Assembly (NCBI GenBank): GCA_029974015.1
Contig: JARKUF010000016.1
Location: 26,886-90,885, forward strand
Length of the DNA stretch: 64,000 bases
Direction of reading: 5' to 3'
Origin: Spirochaetota bacterium
GTDB lineage: Bacteria; Spirochaetota; UBA4802; JAGODF01
Part shown: positions 4,467 to 54,943 of the stretch, in pieces
Layout: every line of letters begins with the position of its first letter
Position numbering within the stretch: position 1 is the stretch's first letter
Notes under the pieces: generated by a model
Database searches by the model: none
Seen by the model: the letters and a program-made list of their open reading frames with translations, nothing else
What the model was told of the DNA's origin: nothing
Made by a program: the position numbers and the translations under genes

Positions 4467-5780
4467 TTGAATATGAAAATATTTAAGGGAATTGGGGCCT
4501 TGCTCTGTGCCGCGTCAATGGGCGGCAGTGTCATCGCTCAGGGTCTATCCTCGTCAATGGGTGGCATTACGACAGTTGTAAACGACGGACCAATGGATGC
4601 AATACGTAATCCGGCCCTCCTTGTCCGCGAAAAGAAGACAGCGGGAATTGGCCTGTCTTTGATGTACCGACCTTATGTATCTCAATCTCTGTCCGCGGAT
4701 ATGGATGTGCAATCTCCCTGGTTATCATTCGAGGACAAGGAGCTCTCTTTCGTTGATCCGGAATTATTTATGGCCCTTGGAGGCTGTGCGGCTTATTATA
4801 AAACAGACCGTCATTCAGTGGCGTTTTCTTTTTCCCAATCCCGGGAATCCGAAAGCGGGGGTTCTTTAATTAGATATGATGTCTCTCCCGCCTTTACTAC
4901 TATAAGATTTTTCTCGGACAAAGAGAGTACAACCTGGAAATCCGAGGGTTTCGTTAGTTATGGTTTTCGCGTAGGGGACGGGTTTTCAGTAGGAATTATG
5001 TTTCAACTGCAAAGAAAGGTTGAAAAATCCGGCGAAACGATTAAAAGCTATTTTGATACAACCTATGTCACATTTGAGAACAGGGGAAGGACGTCATTTA
5101 TTCACTCGTCTACCGTAAAGGCGGGCGCCCTCTATGTCGCGGGCAGATTTCAGGCAGGGCTCATTGCATCAGCCGGAGAGTACTCTTTTATGTTGACGGA
5201 TTATCGTGACATAAAAATCGATTACAGCGGGTCAGATAGTTATTACATTTCAGATACAACGTCGCTGACGAGGGCGTACAGTGCCGGCCCGGGAGGCCTT
5301 GCGGGAATTTCCTATGACCTGACGGGCGCTATCACGATTGCCGCTGAAGCGGGGGGAGTTTTCCCGGTTACCTATTCACGGTCAATGTTGTCGCCTTCAA
5401 CGGCGGGGTATTTCAAATTTGAAGAAGAGACGGAAAACTGTGGCGGTTTCTTTTTTGCCGCAGGCATGAAGTATACGGTGGACCACAGCCTTGCATTGGC
5501 ATGGGGCGCCCATGGGATGTTTTTCTCTTTCAAAACTAATGGGGAAACAAACACTTCTAAGGACGTATCCAATATGTCGATTAGTTATTTCAGTTTCAGG
5601 TTTGGTATTGAAAAAAGGATCGTAACGAATGGATATATTGCGCTTTTTACGGCCGCCGAATGCACCAGCATCGAGGTAAATTCTCACCAGGCCCATGGGG
5701 GAGGGCTAGAAATGAGATTTTCTTTAGCCCAGGCCCGGACGTATATTCTGGGCGGGTTGTCTTACATCCATTATTACTAA
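4467..5780 (+). CDS. Hypothetical outer-membrane beta-barrel protein
   Basis: Signal peptide (MKIFKGIGALLCAASMGGSVIAQG), alternating amphipathic beta-strand pattern, and a C-terminal aromatic end (...YIHYY) typical of outer-membrane proteins. Confidence 0.45.
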   Translation: MNMKIFKGIGALLCAASMGGSVIAQGLSSSMGGITTVVNDGPMDAIRNPALLVREKKTAGIGLSLMYRPYVSQSLSADMDVQSPWLSFEDKELSFVDPELFMALGGCAAYYKTDRHSVAFSFSQSRESESGGSLIRYDVSPAFTTIRFFSDKESTTWKSEGFVSYGFRVGDGFSVGIMFQLQRKVEKSGETIKSYFDTTYVTFENRGRTSFIHSSTVKAGALYVAGRFQAGLIASAGEYSFMLTDYRDIKIDYSGSDSYYISDTTSLTRAYSAGPGGLAGISYDLTGAITIAAEAGGVFPVTYSRSMLSPSTAGYFKFEEETENCGGFFFAAGMKYTVDHSLALAWGAHGMFFSFKTNGETNTSKDVSNMSISYFSFRFGIEKRIVTNGYIALFTAAECTSIEVNSHQAHGGGLEMRFSLAQARTYILGGLSYIHYY

Positions 5781-6737: not shown

Positions 6738-6903
6738 CCTCTAATTAGGTTTTCCCGCCAGCCTTAGGCGGGCGGGAAAATTCAATACCGGCAACCTGTA
6801 ATTATGAGGTTTTTCCGCCCGTCTTCGGGGGGGGACCTCAGTGCATAGTGTGCCGGTAGTTGTAATTTATGGGAACCTTAAAATAATATTTTTTGATGTT
6901 CCC
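6733..6903 (+). repeat. MITE-like modular repeat, copy A (composite, with the left inverted repeat and hairpin modules duplicated in tandem)
   Basis: GGCAACCTCTAAT + hairpin AGGTTTTCCCGCCAGCCTTAGGCGGGCGGGAAAA, then a second GGCAACCTGTAAT + hairpin, then TGCCGGTAGTTGTAATTTATGGGAACC and the right end ...GATGTTCCC. Flanked by TTTA at 6729-6732 and 6904-6907. Confidence 0.7.
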
Positions 6904-24600: not shown

Positions 24601-25494
24601 TCAATACTGCATGTTCTCGATAATCTCGAGGAGCGGCTTAGCGTACCGATCGTGGGCGCCCTCGTTGAAAATAATACGCACAATGCATCCGAGCCTTCCC
24701 TTCGCCAAATAGCCTTCATATCCCGAAAAAGCAGGATAGCCATGATGGTCGATCTTATTGATGACCCGGTATCTGTCGCGGAACAGTTCCTTTCTCTCGT
24801 AGATGTCATCAGTTAGGATGATGCGCCAGTGCCCGGTGAGCTCTTCTATTGATGATATGGTCGATTTAAATTTTTCACTGTCGACGGATAGCAGAGCGTC
24901 GAAGGAGTCCTTTTTCATTTTCCGCGATTTCTCTTCGGCTCCGAAACGAAGGCCCGCAAGGATTCCGTGGTACAGGTAATCATGACGTTTTCTAAGGCTT
25001 GTCCTGAGAATCACAGTGTCGAAAGGGGATTTGAGGCGGTAATGGGTGATACAGTTTTCAATGACAACCGCATTTTCGGTCCGATATACAAGCAAAGGGG
25101 CTTTTTCGATATGGCGCATGTACCGGGGGCCTTCCCTCTTTTTCAATTTTGCGACTGCATCGGAGGCTTTCCACTGCGCCCTGTAGATACGGTCGTTGCC
25201 TGCTGGCATTGCAAGGATTGACTGTAGAATGTTTAAGCCTTCGGTTATATGGTGGTTTTTTATTAAATCCAGACCGTGATTCAGATAAAAATCGATTCCG
25301 GAAAGGGAAACCGCCTTATATTTGTACTCCGGCTTGCCGGAAGTCCATATTTTACCCTGTTTGTCAATATGATAGGCGTTTCCGTCCAAATCCTTGATGA
25401 GGACCCATCCCGGGAGCTGGGCATACAAATATACACTGCAGTTCAAAATGATAAAAATAAATGATGAAATTTTTTTTGGTATTTCTGAAATCAT
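24601..25494 (-). CDS. Hypothetical secreted protein
   Basis: Signal peptide (FIFIILNCSVYLYAQ). No recognisable catalytic motifs. Confidence 0.35.
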   Translation of the reverse strand: MISEIPKKISSFIFIILNCSVYLYAQLPGWVLIKDLDGNAYHIDKQGKIWTSGKPEYKYKAVSLSGIDFYLNHGLDLIKNHHITEGLNILQSILAMPAGNDRIYRAQWKASDAVAKLKKREGPRYMRHIEKAPLLVYRTENAVVIENCITHYRLKSPFDTVILRTSLRKRHDYLYHGILAGLRFGAEEKSRKMKKDSFDALLSVDSEKFKSTISSIEELTGHWRIILTDDIYERKELFRDRYRVINKIDHHGYPAFSGYEGYLAKGRLGCIVRIIFNEGAHDRYAKPLLEIIENMQY

Positions 25495-25678
25495 AGGGTA
25501 TACTTATAAAGAGCAATAGGCAATTTCTTATTATATAGTATTCATTATTGCTTTGTTTTTGTATTGAAATGAGTAGTGCATGCGATTAATCCTGCCGCAG
25601 GGTGCGAGATGGTAACGGATCAATGGTATTTGTATCGGCATTATTTTCAAGAGAATATTGTTTTTTTGAGGAGACGAC

Positions 25679-25915
25679 ATGTTAAACCAAAAGGAAAGGA
25701 GCACATCAATGAATGCCCATGCAAGAGGTAGGAAAAAATCGGTAAAACTCCCCGATGATTATGAAACCCTGGATATGGTCGTGGAGAGGGTTGAAAAAGA
25801 ATATATTTTAAAGACACTTGAGCTGACCAACTGGAACCTCCAGAAGACGAGCCGCGTGCTTGATATCGCACGCAATACGCTCAAGGCGAAAATAAAGAAG
25901 TACGGCATTGAGTAA
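25679..25915 (+). CDS. Fis-family small DNA-binding protein (HTH_8)
   Basis: C-terminal ...YILKTLELTNWNLQKTSRVLDIARNTLKAKIKKYGI is the Fis-type helix-turn-helix. Confidence 0.55.
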   Translation: MLNQKERSTSMNAHARGRKKSVKLPDDYETLDMVVERVEKEYILKTLELTNWNLQKTSRVLDIARNTLKAKIKKYGIE

Positions 25916-25941
25916 CTGAAGAAATCGGACACCGAATGGTG

Positions 25942-26994
25942 TCAGACAAGCATAATGATCACGAGCAGGCCAATTAAAAGGGCTCCTATTAGGAGCGCTA
26001 GATAGAGAAGACTCTGGCTGTCCTTTCCTGCTTTCACTTCCGCTGTCTGGACGGTTTCCATTTCTATCTTGACGTTTTCCTCCTCTACGATTTTCGCGAG
26101 GATGTTTTTTGCGACTACGCCGTAAATAGCGAATCCCCCTTCCCTGAGGGGGATTTTCGCTTTGACACGGGCCTTGACGGGGAGCATCTCACCGTCAGAG
26201 GTTAATGCCTTCTGGGCCGTCGCCACCTTAACTGCGATATCGTCGTTCTCATTTGTCAGAAGGACCTTCATCCTATCGCCGGGCAGGATGTCGTTTATGT
26301 ATTTTCCCTTCACGGGGGAAACGATGACGCGGCCGTCTACTATGTGCTCCGCCTCCTTCTCGATTTTGGCGATGAGTTTTTCCTCTTCCGATTCGGAAGA
26401 CGTGTCCTCGTCGACAGGTTTCTCTCTGGAGATCGGCACTGTTTCTGCAGGTATCCCCAAAAGCTCAAGTTGAAGGGAGCTTGTTTTCTCGAAATTGAGC
26501 TGGCACTGTGTTTCGTCACGTTGGTAGTATTTTTCAATTATCTCAACAAGAATGTCGGTTACAATTTCAATGTTATTGTCAACGATGTACTCGAATATGT
26601 CGTACCCTCCAAGGGAATCCGCCAGGTGGCGGGTGAATTCGTAGGATCCTCCGCTTCCGGAGCCGGGTTTCAATTCACTGCCGACATAATCCTTGAATTT
26701 TGAATAGAAAAATTTCCAACCATCGTTGATGGAAACCTTGTCGTGAATGGACTTCGTATCCGTAAGAAGTGAATTAATATTCATAATATAGTTGTGCTCA
26801 ATGTTGAAAAAGACGAGGAATACTCCGTAGGTGTGCCCTCCCGCAGAGAACCTGCCTTTGATGATGATGACGTCGTCAAGCTGGCCGTTGACCATCTGTT
26901 TTGCTTTTTCCACATCGCCTCCGGTGTATTTCATGGCGATGTTGATCTGTCTGGTTTTCTCCCCGAGAGAATCGTACTGGTTGGTTTCTGCCAT
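25942..26994 (-). CDS. Hypothetical tail-anchored membrane protein with an N-terminal UBA-like helical domain and an acidic linker
   Basis: A UBA-like N-terminal helical segment (...EKTRQINIAMKYTGGDVEKAKQMVNGQ...), a Glu/Asp/Ser-rich linker, and a single C-terminal transmembrane helix (LLYLALLIGALLIGLLVIIMLV). Translationally coupled to the upstream gene (2-nt gap). Confidence 0.35.
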   Translation of the reverse strand: MAETNQYDSLGEKTRQINIAMKYTGGDVEKAKQMVNGQLDDVIIIKGRFSAGGHTYGVFLVFFNIEHNYIMNINSLLTDTKSIHDKVSINDGWKFFYSKFKDYVGSELKPGSGSGGSYEFTRHLADSLGGYDIFEYIVDNNIEIVTDILVEIIEKYYQRDETQCQLNFEKTSSLQLELLGIPAETVPISREKPVDEDTSSESEEEKLIAKIEKEAEHIVDGRVIVSPVKGKYINDILPGDRMKVLLTNENDDIAVKVATAQKALTSDGEMLPVKARVKAKIPLREGGFAIYGVVAKNILAKIVEEENVKIEMETVQTAEVKAGKDSQSLLYLALLIGALLIGLLVIIMLV

Positions 26995-26996
26995 GG

Positions 26997-27494
26997 TTAT
27001 CCCTTTGGCGCTTCGGCTATGAATTTTTCCAGTATTTCGTATTTTTTCTGAGGCGGCAGGTTTATGAGACGCTTCAAGTTCTGGAACACCAGGGGCATGT
27101 ATTTCAAAGACGTTTCCAGGATAAAATAACCGTCCTTATCCAGATTATTAATAAAGGTCACCTTGTTTGAAGGCAGTTTTAAGCCGAGGATGGGTCCGTA
27201 AAACATGATAATGTGCTGTGGAGACAGGTATTTGATGTTCAGACGGTTGACGCCTAATTCAAGGCGGCGAACCCGGACATAATTCTTATACTTTTCGAGG
27301 GGGATATTTTCCCAGCTTTTGGGGTTTCCGGCTATCAAAACGGCTATGCGATCGTTTTCTTTCGAAACTACCACCTGGAAATAGGTGTTATATATCTTGT
27401 AAGATGAAAGGAGCCCAAAAAGGCTGTCATCTCCGCTCTTAAGCATCTCTCGCGCTTTTTTTAAGGAATGCCGTGCTGCCATAGAATGCACCAT
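26997..27494 (-). CDS. Hypothetical protein (possible roadblock/LC7-like fold)
   Basis: 165 aa with no clear motifs. The alternating hydrophobic pattern in residues ~10-60 loosely resembles roadblock/MglB domains. Weak. Confidence 0.3.
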   Translation of the reverse strand: MVHSMAARHSLKKAREMLKSGDDSLFGLLSSYKIYNTYFQVVVSKENDRIAVLIAGNPKSWENIPLEKYKNYVRVRRLELGVNRLNIKYLSPQHIIMFYGPILGLKLPSNKVTFINNLDKDGYFILETSLKYMPLVFQNLKRLINLPPQKKYEILEKFIAEAPKG

Positions 27495-27580
27495 TATGTT
27501 AGAGAAACCATTCCGTCATTATTACACTGCGATATCTTATAAATCAAGTACGATTTTTTACCGTCCAGTCCAGCGTGGGG

Positions 27581-28138
27581 TTATACCGGACAGTATATAA
27601 CGGTGTTTCCTTCGAGGAGTTGCCGTATCGTTCTCATGGAATGCATGGAATGAAGAAGAGTTTCGGCCCTGGCGGTGTCAATTTCAAGAAAAGTTGCAAT
27701 GTCCATGGGAATGGCCGTTTTATTGACCATGAGGTAGTTGATGATGTCCCGTTCCTGTGGATGAAGGTCACCTATGAAAAAATTATTTTCGATGAGGCTT
27801 TCGGTTATGACGACGAGCCTGATATTGTTGACAGCGGTGTATGATTTGAAGACCGAGGCGATATTGATTGCAGCGATTTCCGATATTTGCGCCAGCTTGA
27901 CGTAGAAATGGTTTTCATCGTCTCTGGATTTAAAAATAAGGCGAATGATGAATTCGTCGATAAAAGAAGGGTCCAGGACGCGGTATCCCTCGAAATCAAG
28001 GAGAAGCACCTCCCCTTTGTGGATATGCACAAGGTTTACCATGACCCGGGAGTAAAGTTCCTTCCCCACCGGTCTTGTGATAAGGTCGGGTATTGTTGGC
28101 TTTAATTCAGGGGCTATTTTATTAAGCTTGATTATCAT
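27581..28138 (-). CDS. STAS-like (DUF4325-like) domain protein with a possible C-terminal winged-helix DNA-binding domain
   Basis: ...GEVLLLDFEGYRVLDPSFIDEFIIRLIF... matches the STAS-like 'lDF.gv...sFldEl' pattern. The C-terminal ERDIINYLMVNKTAIPMDIATFLEIDTARAETLLHSM looks like a MarR/TrmB-type wHTH. Confidence 0.4.
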   Translation of the reverse strand: MIIKLNKIAPELKPTIPDLITRPVGKELYSRVMVNLVHIHKGEVLLLDFEGYRVLDPSFIDEFIIRLIFKSRDDENHFYVKLAQISEIAAINIASVFKSYTAVNNIRLVVITESLIENNFFIGDLHPQERDIINYLMVNKTAIPMDIATFLEIDTARAETLLHSMHSMRTIRQLLEGNTVIYCPV

Positions 28139-28315
28139 TGATTGCCAGAAGTAGCGCTTTTATGTAGGTCCGGTGGAGAGTGCTGCCCTGGAATAAAGGG
28201 GCGCTTTTGGGCTGTTCACTCGATGTTATGCGTAGCTACCGGATGAAGCGACGTTCGAGGTACTATTCTTATCGGCCATTATTCTCCATGTATTTAGAAC
28301 TTCCAGGGGTTATAG

Positions 28316-29206
28316 TCAACCCGTCAGGGAGATGGATATCTGGGTGCCGGGGAAAAGGCTGAGACCGTTTTTTCTGAATGAATGTGTGGCAGTCCCGGTT
28401 TTGCGGTTGTACATTACTGAGACCGAAGCATTTTCGGAACGGATAAATATACTTCCCCGGAGTTTTTCGATTATTGAGTTTACCTGGCTAAGACCGTAGC
28501 CGAATTCGCGCTTGCTTGATATCGTCGTAGTGAGGGCCATTTCAATAAGACTGGCCGGCGAATCGTAATTGATCCCCGATTTTAACGCGAAACTTTCCCG
28601 GATCCCTATTCCGGAATCCGAGATTACCAGGCGCACTATTTGTTGGGTGCCGTAGGAGTACGCCTGCATGGAAAGAAACCCGGAGTCGAGACTGTGTTCG
28701 TAAATGTTCTGGCATATCTCAGATATGACTGTGACAAAATAATCTACGTTGGTGTCGCTGATCCAGTTTTTGAGGAGATGTCTCGCTCTCTTGCGAAAAA
28801 CCGCTATAGCTCCTGAAATTGCCCTGATACTATCCCTCTCCTTGTTAGGGATGTCTGTTATCTCCACGAGGCTCCTGCTCTGAGGGCTGCGCTTGAGGAA
28901 AAAACGTTCATCCAGACTCTCCCTCATATTGAATACACACTTTTTGAAGAAATCCATACGGTAGAGATACTGGTGAACGGCCAGGGGGATGTTGCTCAGG
29001 GAGAGTTTTTCACCGGTATTTCTCAGGTAGTTCCTGCCTAGTAGCAAAAGGCCGATCATTGAATACGGTTCAATGAATGTCAGCTTCGACAGGTCGAGGC
29101 ATTCTACCTTGCCGGAGTAAAGCCTTGTTTGTAGGTTTAAAACCTCTTCGAAGGCGTATGAATCGTTGAAAGCGTCAGGTAACAGCAGTGAATTCCTGGA
29201 TGGCAC
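28316..29206 (-). CDS. Fused STAS-like N-domain + GHKL (RsbW/SpoIIAB-type) ATPase/kinase domain protein
   Basis: The N-terminus ...ECLDLSKLTFIEPYSMIGLLLLG... is STAS-like. The C-terminus has the GHKL boxes EICQNIYEHS (N box), LVISDSGIGI (G1) and GYGLSQVNSIIEKLRGSIFIRS (G2). Confidence 0.55.
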   Translation of the reverse strand: MPSRNSLLLPDAFNDSYAFEEVLNLQTRLYSGKVECLDLSKLTFIEPYSMIGLLLLGRNYLRNTGEKLSLSNIPLAVHQYLYRMDFFKKCVFNMRESLDERFFLKRSPQSRSLVEITDIPNKERDSIRAISGAIAVFRKRARHLLKNWISDTNVDYFVTVISEICQNIYEHSLDSGFLSMQAYSYGTQQIVRLVISDSGIGIRESFALKSGINYDSPASLIEMALTTTISSKREFGYGLSQVNSIIEKLRGSIFIRSENASVSVMYNRKTGTATHSFRKNGLSLFPGTQISISLTG

Positions 29207-29298
29207 CGCAAGTATCCCTTGGGAGCAAAAAAAACCCGCCTTTTCCCATTACGGCACAGTGAATCCAAAGCGCTGAGTGGATTTTTTTCATTTTGTTG

Positions 29299-29408
29299 TT
29301 GACAAAAAAACCAATATTTTATTTTTTGGTTATTAGTCGTCCTCCTATTTTTTTTGACGAACCTCCAAATCAACTCTTCAAGGGGATTTTATATCCCCTT
29401 TTTTTTTT
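29299..29408 (+). ncRNA. Candidate small RNA (orphan TTGACA-type promoter element to an orphan intrinsic terminator)
   Basis: TTGACA at 29299-29304. About 80 nt downstream is a strong terminator with no upstream plus-strand gene. The intervening sequence carries two CCUCC motifs (GTCGTCCTCCTATTTTTTTT, GACGAACCTCCAAATC). Confidence 0.2.
29382..29408 (+). terminator. Rho-independent terminator with no protein-coding gene upstream on its strand
   Basis: GGGGATTTTATATCCCC followed by T10. Confidence 0.6.
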
Positions 29409-29472
29409 GAAAAGCTGTAATAATCACCCGGGATCACAAAAATTGTTGCAGTTGGTAACGTTTATTTATTAT

Positions 29473-29577
29473 GTCAACCACCTCCGCCTGGCGGAAAACT
29501 TTAGTGCTGAGACTGCGAGTAGTTACAATTTATGGGAATCTTGAAAATTCAATTTTTAGAGGTTCCCAGCTATAGGG
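29473..29577 (+). repeat. MITE-like repeat, copy C (degenerate left half, intact right modules)
   Basis: GTCAACCACCTCCGCCTGGCGGAAAAC... then CTGCGAGTAGTTACAATTTATGGGAATC + TTGAAAATTCAATTTTTAGAGGTTCCC. Confidence 0.55.
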
Positions 29578-29698
29578 TATATACTGAAATACAGATATTC
29601 AAAAGTTGCAACTATTTTTGATATATCAGTGCCAAATTTTTTGAAATAAATTCATCGGGATGGAATGGGGAATGGTTTCCCGGACCACAATATAATTG

Positions 29699-29729
29699 TT
29701 GACGTAATATCTTTACATAAGGTATACTA
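29699..29729 (+). promoter_or_regulatory. Putative sigma-70 promoter reading toward bactofilin, through repeat copy D
   Basis: TTGACG-N19-TATACT (an 18-nt spacer if -35 is read as TGACGT), about 190 nt upstream of the bactofilin ATG. The intergenic element at 29787-29907 would be part of the 5' UTR. Confidence 0.3.
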
Positions 29730-29786
29730 TGATAAATTGTGCCCTATGTGTTTCGCGGCACGGTTGTTCAGGGTTATGTGGGTAAT

Positions 29787-29907
29787 GGCAACCTCTAATA
29801 TTTAGATACTCCCGCCCGCCGAAGTCGGTCGGGAATATCTAACTGCTGAATTTGCCGGTAGGTACATTCTTTGGGAAACTTAAAAATTTTAATTTTTAGA
29901 GGTTCCC
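29787..29907 (+). repeat. MITE-like modular repeat, copy D (full length), located in the bactofilin 5' leader
   Basis: GGCAACCTCTAATATTTAG + hairpin ATACTCCCGCCCGCCGAAGTCGGTCGGGAATAT + TGCCGGTAGGTACATTCTTTGGGAAAC + TTAAAAATTTTAATTTTTAGAGGTTCCC. It ends 15 nt before the bactofilin ATG. Confidence 0.7.
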
Positions 29908-29922
29908 TATTGTTGGGTTAAA

Positions 29923-30285
29923 ATGGCACGAGCGATAAAGCAAATCGAAGACAATATCGTCAACAGCATCATCGGGGAAGGGTCGGAGTTTAAGGGTGAA
30001 TTCAATATTAATGGGCTCCTCAGGATTGACGGCAAGTTCAAAGGAACCATCCAGACTGACGGCAAGGTGCTAATTGGAAAGTCGGGAGAGGCAGTGACCG
30101 ACATCAAGGCCCGTGTCGTGGTGGTGGGTGGATATGTGAAAGGAAATATTTTTGCCGGGGAGAGGGTTATCATGCTTTCCACGGGGAAGGTCACCGGCAA
30201 TATTATCACCCCGAGCCTAATTATGGAAGACGGCGTCATTTTCGAAGGAAACTGCATCATCAACAAAAAGGAAGAAATCGCCTGA
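29923..30285 (+). CDS. Bactofilin (DUF583 cytoskeletal protein)
   Basis: 120 aa with repeated beta-helix signature segments (...GKVLIGKSGEAVTDIKARVVVVGGYVKGNIFAGERVIMLSTGKVTGNI...). Confidence 0.8.
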   Translation: MARAIKQIEDNIVNSIIGEGSEFKGEFNINGLLRIDGKFKGTIQTDGKVLIGKSGEAVTDIKARVVVVGGYVKGNIFAGERVIMLSTGKVTGNIITPSLIMEDGVIFEGNCIINKKEEIA

Positions 30286-50103: not shown

Positions 50104-50142
50104 CAAAAAAAGGGGACGCCCCGCAGGGTGTCCCTTTTTTTT
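50104..50142. terminator. Bidirectional rho-independent terminator between the convergent porin and nagB genes
   Basis: A7-GGGGACGCCCCGCAGGGTGTCCC-T8: a GC-rich hairpin flanked by an A-run and a T-run. Confidence 0.7.
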
Positions 50143-54751: not shown

Positions 54752-54871
54752 GGCAACCTCTAATAATTAGGTTTTCCCGCCCGCCTTCGGCGGGCGGGAA
54801 AACCTAAGTCCTGAGTATGCCAGTAGTTACAATTTATGGGAACCTCAAAAATTTAATTTTTAGAGGTCCCC
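54752..54871 (+). repeat. MITE-like modular repeat, copy I (best-preserved full-length copy)
   Basis: GGCAACCTCTAATAATT + AGGTTTTCCCGCCCGCCTTCGGCGGGCGGGAAAACCT + AAGTCCTGAGTATGCCAGTAGTTACAATTTATGGGAACC + TCAAAAATTTAATTTTTAGAGGTCCCC. TTGT abuts both ends (54748-54751 and 54872-54875). Confidence 0.75.
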
Positions 54872-54943
54872 TTGTTCAAATAAAAAAAATGAGAGGTGGG
54901 GAACCTCTCAAGAAAGGGTAGTGTTTATGAAAGCGATAAATTT

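Follow-up and report, generated by a model that had tools for sequence, protein, structure and literature searches.

A conserved candidate small RNA gene with two anti-Shine-Dalgarno motifs upstream of the bactofilin operon in Leptospiraceae-like spirochaetes

Introduction

The segment 29299-29408 of the spirochaete DNA analysed here (the whole 64-kb stretch, hereafter the window) is probably a self-contained small RNA (sRNA) gene of the plus strand, whose product would pair with the ribosome-binding sites of messenger RNAs. The preliminary description of this DNA had proposed an orphan plus-strand sRNA gene running from a TTGACA hexamer to an intrinsic terminator, and this proposal is supported in silico by the borders of conservation, by the non-coding character of the sequence, by a covarying terminator and by the lack of a counterpart in Rfam. 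On the comparisons of sequence made here, the family of the unit is absent from Rfam and limited to one sub-lineage among uncultured Leptospiraceae-like spirochaetes.

Layout of the candidate gene

Inspection of the sequence places TTGACA at 29299-29304 of the plus strand and TCCTCC at 29340-29345, so that the first CCTCC occupies 29341-29345, while the second CCTCC (29362-29366) lies within TTGACGAACCTCCAAA (29354-29369); the sequence around the two motifs reads GUCCUCCUAUU and AACCUCCAAA. The arms of the hairpin, AAGGGGAT and ATCCCCTT, extend over 29380-29400 with a TTTAT loop, and a run of ten T continues up to 29408. The TTGACA hexamer, both CCTCC motifs and the terminator are thus exactly where the preliminary description had located them. 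The elements of the unit are collected in Table 1, and the 16-nt core is likely to be the seed region.

Table 1. Elements of the candidate sRNA gene, in positions of the window
Element	Position	Strand	Basis or remark
TTGACA(A) box	29299..29305	+	-35-like hexamer at the left edge of conservation; in 31/31 homologues, 34-35 nt 5' of TCCTCC
Semi-conserved 34-nt stretch of fixed length (CAAT/CAAC, TGG(T/C))	29306..29339	+	Alignments; consensus helix not predicted
Motif 1, TCCTCC[T/A]A (CCUCC = anti-Shine-Dalgarno)	29340..29347	+	Invariant columns in 30 aligned sequences
U-rich linker	29348-29355	+	Directly 3' of motif 1
16-nt core TTG[A/G]CGAACCTCCAAA with motif 2 (CCUCC 29362-29366)	29354..29369	+	15/16 positions invariant
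Pyrimidine-rich spacer, variable	29370..29379	+	Between core and terminator; 7-21 nt across homologues
Intrinsic terminator, stem AAGGGGAU/AUCCCCUU, loop UUUAU, U10 tail	29380..29408	+	8-bp stem

The composite of TTGACA followed by two CCTCC motifs occurs once in the 64-kb window, against 0.037 occurrences expected. With this composite unique and the terminator rare in the window, the arrangement of hexamer, two CCUCC motifs and terminator exceeds chance.

The unit is located in a gap of 716 bp (29207-29922) that contains only mechanical open reading frames (ORFs), of 83, 78, 46, 38, 36 and 34 aa. No Pfam match was obtained for the 83-, 78- and 46-aa ORFs, the tblastn similarity of the two ORFs that overlap the conserved block was split across reading frames, and the four gap ORFs outside that block had none among the tblastn matches listed for the relatives. 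The earlier statement that no plausible ORF lies between 29206 and 29923 agrees with the missing Pfam matches of the tested ORFs and with the frame-split similarity.

To the left, a cluster of minus-strand genes ends with that of a HATPase_c protein (28316-29206); to the right, on the plus strand, are bactofilin (29923-30285), DUF327, holB, PSP1 and metG. It had also been claimed that the terminator has no upstream plus-strand gene to serve, and indeed none is found within 3.3 kb, none lying closer than 25709-25915, with 24601-29206 occupied by minus-strand genes. The former label "STAS-GHKL" for 28316-29206 stands in one half: only HATPase_c was found there by Pfam, and the STAS-like part, a weak DUF4325 match, belongs to the next gene (27581-28138, minus strand).

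Conservation across relatives

The window DNA is identical to a contig of the metagenome-assembled genome (MAG) GCA_033811455.1, an identical contig also occurs in SRR23724709, and the identical-protein contigs L001-L003 come from the same strain with 100% identical DNA, which makes them uninformative for comparison. By means of a protein-anchored scan, with one genome per GTDB species, 14 species were obtained (L004-L017; labelled uncultured Leptospiraceae, Leptospira or Spirochaetota MAGs), with bactofilins 82-94% identical to that of the window. When the region 29100-30000 was compared with these 14 loci by blastn, only the start of bactofilin and the block 29297-29407 aligned, the latter with 72-86% identity; this block was matched in 13 of the 14 loci, and the unit in the fourteenth was recovered by pattern search. 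The other intergenic DNA remained unaligned but for a 24-nt piece of L005 at the bactofilin promoter. In the same loci the identity amounts to 33-56% for holB, 38-68% for DUF327 and 58-76% for the HATPase protein. In the alignments, conservation begins at TTGACA and ends with the T-run. The preliminary description had named conservation in related genomes as a check, and the block 29297-29408 proves to be the sole conserved part of the 716-bp gene-free region.

A scan of 241 million metagenome records with the exact pattern TCCTCCNA-N(2-12)-TTGNCGAACCTCCAAA yielded 24 contigs, about one chance match being expected by our own estimate, and the full architecture (TTGACA, 34-35 nt, motif 1, core, hairpin and T-run) is present in every contig that reaches far enough. 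A further relative with the unit, L086, was fetched by protein identity, bringing the total to 15 related genome or contig loci and 24 metagenome contigs, equivalent to 31 distinct sequences. Throughout these 31 sequences the unit measures 109-121 nt, counted from TTGACA-3 to the end of the T-run, and both TCCTCC[T/A]A and TTG[A/G]CGAACCTCCAAA are unchanged, so that the two CCUCC motifs are invariant in 31/31; the earlier view of these motifs as functional features is strengthened accordingly. The distance from CCTCC to CCTCC is 19-23 bp across homologues and 21 bp in the window.

The unit is found in single copy at each locus that carries it, on the bactofilin strand and 293-1154 nt upstream of bactofilin, which is seen in every contig reaching far enough. 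Diverged copies of the core with up to three substitutions were found neither in the rest of the window, nor in 40 unrelated loci, nor in the distant relatives L082-L085, and none with up to two substitutions was found in the distant relatives L087-L089. In seven more distant relatives, whose bactofilin is 75-87% identical, the upstream region is 100-360 nt long and has no unit.

The terminator

Both strands of the 64 kb were scanned under strict terms (a stem of 6 bp or longer, four or more G-C pairs and seven or more T), and three terminators were detected in the window, compared with about 0.03 per window in block shuffles. The other two (50110-50142 and 54882-54910) are situated directly behind gene ends and the one at 29380-29408 is an orphan, its hairpin having been found by a consensus scan as well. 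All homologues possess the terminator, at +79..+110 from TTGACA, with a run of T5-T10 on the plus strand only, the minus strand of the hairpin having no U-tail. Within it, A-GGGG-A/U-CCCC-U is invariant, and the invariance of GGGG/CCCC counts against the sRNA reading.

Compensatory changes were observed at two stem positions (AU<->GC at one, UA/AU/GC at the other). In a hairpin-only alignment 89.3% of the cells are paired and the covariation score reaches 0.243, where the shuffles give 81.2% and 0.107; 0/500 shuffles scored as high and the slid controls were all far lower. On MAFFT alignments RNAalifold had recovered no more than the 4 G-C pairs, as the arms of the terminator were out of register between clades; the hairpin-only alignment corrected this. 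A covarying hairpin with a strand-specific T-run indicates transcription termination, and the textbook intrinsic terminator of the preliminary description is confirmed as rare, orphan, universal, strand-specific and covarying.

Coding potential and RNA structure

From its sequence, the unit is judged to be non-coding, in view of frame-breaking indels, a core that falls in different frames and the negative Pfam searches. Homologues differ in the length of the internal T-run (6-11 nt) and of the spacer that precedes the hairpin (7-21 nt), with indels that are not multiples of 3, and the invariant core reads D-E-P-P-N in the 83-aa ORF of the window and R-T-S-K in the ORF of L007; such indels and frame shifts exclude a protein.

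It is the primary sequence that is conserved, not the structure, as expected of seed regions. Besides the terminator, no consensus helix was found by RNAalifold, and the folds of single sequences contain weak, clade-specific hairpins in differing registers. A 5' hairpin between TTGACA and CCUCC can be formed in each clade and was rejected as a conserved element, since its registers differ; nor does it help to place the transcription start. The predicted unpaired probability of motif 1 is 0.36-0.98, varying with the clade and the start-site model, and that of motif 2 and the core is 0.24-1.0 across clades and 0.87-0.93 in the window; for both motifs of the window it is 0.81-0.93. The predicted fold of the window places the first CCUCC in a loop of 14 nt above a weak 5-bp stem (UCGUC/GACGA) and the second in a single-stranded stretch, and the fold z-scores of -2.6 and -2.7 are mainly owed to the terminator. 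The description of the CCUCC motifs as exposed is consistent with these models, in which they are predicted to be largely unpaired.

Promoter and transcription start

All homologues have a perfect TTGACA, with an A/T-rich tract upstream in most clades, and the box is presumably a -35 element or an activator site. In no clade does a canonical -10 element stand 16-18 nt downstream of TTGACA (the sequences there are TTTTTT, TTTTGT, TGATGT and similar, without the A at -11), and in the window only TTTTTT is present at 17 nt, in line with the earlier caveat that the -10 is unconvincing. In some clades a box resembling TATACT, TAATAT or TATTAG occurs 24-27 nt after TTGACA: TATACT is present 26-27 nt downstream in the L007, L013 and L016 clades, with TGn in the L007 clade, and the window clade has only a poor counterpart (TATTAG, TATCAG, CTCGCAG), neither the position nor the sequence of the box being conserved. 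A start set by the TATACT box would fall at or after the first CCUCC, and so motif 1 might be promoter or discriminator DNA, not RNA. The stretch 29306..29339 belongs either to the promoter, as its spacer and -10 region, or to the RNA, as its 5' part. Upstream of TTGACA, AT-rich boxes resembling a -10 occur in some clades; the window and L061 have none.

Other promoters in these genomes look canonical, such as that of bactofilin in the window and TTGCAA-16-TAATAT before a 47-aa gene in L007; with a perfect TTGACA and no -10 at the normal distance, the promoter of the unit may therefore depend on an activator or on a different sigma factor. Promoters of the sigma54 (-24/-12), sigma28 (GCCGATAT), ECF and Bacteroidetes (TAnnTTTG) types were considered by inspection of the upstream region, and none fits any set of clades consistently. 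The sigma28-type -10 consensus GCCGATAT does occur 15 nt upstream of TTGACA in the L007 clade only (L007:5426-5440). A minus-strand promoter, TTTTCA-16-TAAAAT, within the hairpin was also rejected, its -10 being the AU-rich loop and its -35 not being conserved. In a Leptospira sRNA survey, the promoter motifs of L. interrogans are described as poorly defined.

Genomic neighbourhood

Bactofilin has a sigma70-like promoter of its own, TTGACG-18-TATACT (29699-29728), about 190 nt upstream of the gene, and the flank of its -35 element (AATTGTTGAC) is conserved in L005 and L086. The spacer that separates the unit from bactofilin shows no conservation across species and is full of palindromic repeats particular to each. 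The 46-aa ORF at 29665-29805 (plus strand) spans the bactofilin promoter and is a called gene in the MAG annotation (L001 4743-4883); with no Pfam match and none among the tblastn matches listed, it is probably a false gene call. Among the loci without the unit, L082-L085 have a common conserved AAATTTTACTTG motif about 60-90 nt upstream of bactofilin, followed by a -10-like box that is TATTAT in L082 and L085 and a weaker AT-rich box in the other two.

In four clades (L007, L016/L013, L006 and L061) a highly conserved 47-aa gene of the opposite strand separates the unit from bactofilin, for example L007:5590-5733 (minus strand), with equivalents in L006, L013, L016, L017, L061 and the whole L007 clade. 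Its product, MRKTILKLLEYGWPDRIIASYLMIKPAIVKYYRRKYRISRNEYQGFY, is basic and HTH-like, with 70-100% identity across clades and, as its sole Pfam match, a weak one to GerE (E 0.14). The gene has a strong AAGGAGG Shine-Dalgarno (SD) sequence, its promoter in L007 being the one given above, and its coding sequence ends 61-89 nt after the core, with the stop codon 15-30 nt past the T-run of the sRNA in L007 and L016, the two that were checked. The gene was found neither in the window nor in the L005/L070/L086/L015/L014 and L004/L012/L065 clades. The 47-aa protein is basic and HTH-like (weak GerE) and not hydrophobic, which led us to discard a type I toxin-antitoxin system.

Strong minus-strand intrinsic terminators, for example AATCCCGGTTCCCGGGATT followed by T8, are situated 18-60 nt to the left of TTGACA in L016 (about 5414-5433), L017, L013 and L006, and in clades with such a left terminator the mRNA of the 47-aa gene may read through the sRNA gene in antisense. 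Neither the window (fold z = +0.4) nor the L007 clade has a left terminator. Further to the left, the four minus-strand genes of the window at 25942-29206 (350 aa, 165 aa, DUF4325/STAS-like and HATPase_c) have the look of a partner-switching module; this cluster adjoins the unit in most clades and is missing in the L007 clade, where a transporter-like gene is found about 700 nt away instead.

A repeat of about 50 nt, AGTAGTTACAATTTATGGGAACCTTAAAAATTTAATTTTTAGAGGTTCCC, with the palindrome GGGAAC..N~22..GTTCCC, is present at 29519-29568 and 29859-29908, with further copies at 6889, 23954, 36650, 53420, 54752 (minus), 54838 (minus), 54857, 54899 (minus), 62569 and 63450. The 15-mer at its 3' end occurs 12 times in the 64 kb, against 0.2 expected. 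The repeats are often found 15-55 nt upstream of start codons, with one 37 nt before tRNA-Gln, and one divergent intergenic region contains both orientations. The exact sequence is species-specific, and analogous GGGAAC..GTTCCC palindromes are present in the same spacer of the relatives, with three tandem copies in L066; the repeat may serve as a promoter cassette or an operator, or belong to the REP/MITE-like elements. A GC-rich hairpin, CCCGCCCGCCGAAG(T/G)CGG(T/G)CGGG, beside GGCAACCTCTAATA at 29786-29835 and in the inverse arrangement at about 54766-54800 (minus strand), appears to belong to the same repeat family.

Proposed mechanism and targets

In the reading that we favour, transcription would begin between the TTGACA box and the first CCUCC and halt at the strong intrinsic terminator ending at 29408; with a start anywhere in that interval, the RNA would be about 65-110 nt long. 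The 16-nt core, including motif 2, would be part of this RNA, as might motif 1; it would have no conserved structure besides the terminator, presenting one or two invariant, mostly single-stranded anti-SD stretches, UCCUCC(U/A)A and UUGRCGAACCUCCAAA. The U-rich linker and the long 3' U-tail would be features of the Hfq type. The most likely mechanism would be base pairing with the GGAGG-type ribosome-binding sites of particular mRNAs, for which the ideal target would be AUUUGGAGGUUCGYCAA, and this pairing would block the binding of the 30S subunit and lower the translation or the stability of the target mRNAs.

An SD sequence is used by about half of the genes in the window and the full GGAGG by only a few of them, so that the extended core could select a small regulon. 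Targets were sought in the 64-kb window from duplex energies and from complements of the seed; the matches amounted to no more than chance-level 9-mers, and none stood at a credible start codon. In relatives, pairing is possible between motif 1 and the stretch from SD to AUG of the neighbouring 47-aa gene (in L007, GGAGGGAA with UUUCCUCC), and in L061 both motifs pair with the region of this gene, at -31.8 kcal/mol; as modelled, pairing of the sRNA with the ribosome-binding site of the 47-aa gene in the relatives is no more than suggestive. As the cognate target this gene was rejected, since the site upstream varies (GGAG, GGAA, GGAC) and the pairing is roughly that of SD and anti-SD only, with the exception of L061.

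Alternative explanations

A first alternative accepts the RNA as real and assigns it another role, the titration of a protein or of another RNA as a sponge or decoy, for example as a mimic of the 16S rRNA 3' tail, and not the occlusion of ribosome-binding sites; this is rather unlikely. The invariance extends far beyond CCUCC, over a 16-nt core with one variable position, and exceeds what SD pairing needs, an extended target was not found in the 64-kb window, and the core (UGGnnnACCUCC / UGGCGAACCUCC) appears loosely similar to the 16S rRNA 3' end (GGAUCACCUCC), a resemblance that is a lead only. However, the target scan was limited to 64 kb, long invariant seeds are typical of base-pairing sRNAs too, and no candidate protein partner is linked to the unit in all clades.

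A broader scheme, in which the RNA would be a two-headed mimic of the 16S anti-SD tail, would form a module with the convergent 47-aa HTH-like protein of the four clades (with antisense read-through to a dedicated terminator), would tune the translation of the minority of mRNAs with a strong GGAGG, or the availability of 30S subunits, throughout the lineage and might be transcribed from a non-canonical promoter (TTGACAA with a distant -10), is quite unlikely.

It is very unlikely that the functional product derives from the minus strand, where the motifs read GGAGG..GGAGG, as the 3' UTR of the convergent 47-aa mRNA or as the 5' leader of the HATPase operon. The conserved 47-aa gene converges on the unit in four clades, the terminators to the left of TTGACA in L006, L013, L016 and L017 would permit read-through of the unit, and the HATPase operon begins 92 nt to the left in the window. 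Nevertheless, the unit is kept in the window and in the two groups of clades without the 47-aa gene, the L007 clade keeps it with neither the HATPase cluster nor a left terminator, and the window has no left terminator either. Moreover, the T-run is conserved solely 3' of the hairpin on the plus strand, with no U-tail on the minus strand, where no start codon was found after either GGAGG.

The synteny and shared orientation with the operon in 39/39 loci carrying the unit raise the question of a cis-acting 5' leader or attenuator of bactofilin-DUF327-holB, with the terminator as its expression platform and a pairing of CCUCC with the GGGG arm as its antiterminator; by inspection, CCUCC could in principle pair with the invariant GGGGA arm. 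This is highly improbable, as the start codon is preceded by 293-1154 nt of unconserved, repeat-filled spacer, and the operon's own promoter together with the convergent 47-aa gene intervening in four clades indicates that the unit is not the operon leader. Furthermore, no aptamer-like conserved structure was found by RNAalifold, the terminator is very strong (8 bp and U10), and the distant relatives run the operon from a region of 100-360 nt without the unit. A riboswitch or attenuator is recognised by a structured sensor and a regulated gene immediately downstream, and the unit has neither.

Just as improbable is a module acting at the DNA level, that is, a set of transcription-factor sites for divergent genes with an irrelevant RNA product. 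The TTGACAA box is a 7-bp palindrome, of 11 bp in the L007 and L016 clades, and the CCTCC boxes of the window are about two helical turns apart (21 bp), but this spacing varies from 19 to 23 bp, the covarying hairpin and strand-specific T-run indicate termination, and the flanking genes vary between clades. Finally, a small protein encoded by the 83-aa plus-strand or the 78-aa minus-strand ORF, mechanical frames that span the unit, is effectively refuted by the negative Pfam searches, by indels that are not multiples of 3, by the different frame of the core between clades and by fragmented tblastn similarity.

Significance and comparison with known RNAs

The regulatory RNAs of the Leptospirales are poorly known, and the unit, from an uncultured lineage, represents a cleanly bounded sRNA candidate of deep conservation whose 16-nt seed is invariant. 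The 31 sequences constitute a ready family model for annotation of the Rfam type, the motif AUUUGGAGGUUCGYCAA supplies a concrete target to be searched for, and the odd geometry of the promoter, a perfect -35 with no -10 at the usual distance, could inform the promoter rules of the group. No concept is challenged by these results, anti-SD sRNAs being well established.

With Rfam 15 at the gathering threshold, only tRNA-Gln was found in the whole window, and no rRNA. For 29100-30000 at E<=10, the best sub-threshold matches had E values of 0.2-10 and were driven by the terminator or by low complexity. A CCUCC sRNA or a bactofilin-linked sRNA is not mentioned in the Leptospira sRNA surveys consulted. 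The 3' tail of 16S rRNA has ACCUCC in common with the unit, which differs from it as an element of about 110 nt with its own terminator and is not an rRNA gene.

RsaE/RoxS of the Firmicutes, sX13 and RepG carry conserved unpaired C/U-rich motifs that pair with G-rich ribosome-binding regions, and they are independent genes with intrinsic terminators. Their motifs are UCCC or CCCC in hairpin loops, whereas the unit differs in motif, structure and taxa and has no match in Rfam. Both sX13, from Xanthomonas, and RepG, from Helicobacter, are mentioned in PMC4615179.

A close parallel in kind is offered by sRNAs with repeated anti-SD motifs that repress translation, which are established through the cuckoo/CcsR/NfeR1 examples; the cuckoo RNA family comprises RSs0680/CcsR1-4 of Rhodobacter and alpha-r14/NfeR1 of Sinorhizobium (PMC4615179). 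Like the cuckoo RNAs, the unit is a short sRNA candidate with repeated anti-SD motifs, an intrinsic terminator and a conserved intergenic neighbourhood, a small gene adjoins in part of the family, and occlusion of the ribosome-binding site is presumed (PMC4615179). The cuckoo motif CCUCCUCCC, however, is placed in the loops of 2-4 modular stem-loops whose stems are dominated by compensatory changes, and in the unit, which has neither this loop motif nor the 2-4 modular stem-loops, CCUCC is embedded in a long, invariant, single-stranded core. The cuckoo family is found in Alphaproteobacteria only, often in tandem copies, whereas the unit is present in one copy in a spirochaete host. Most likely, therefore, the sRNA family is new, and its mechanistic kind, the anti-SD sRNA, is already familiar.
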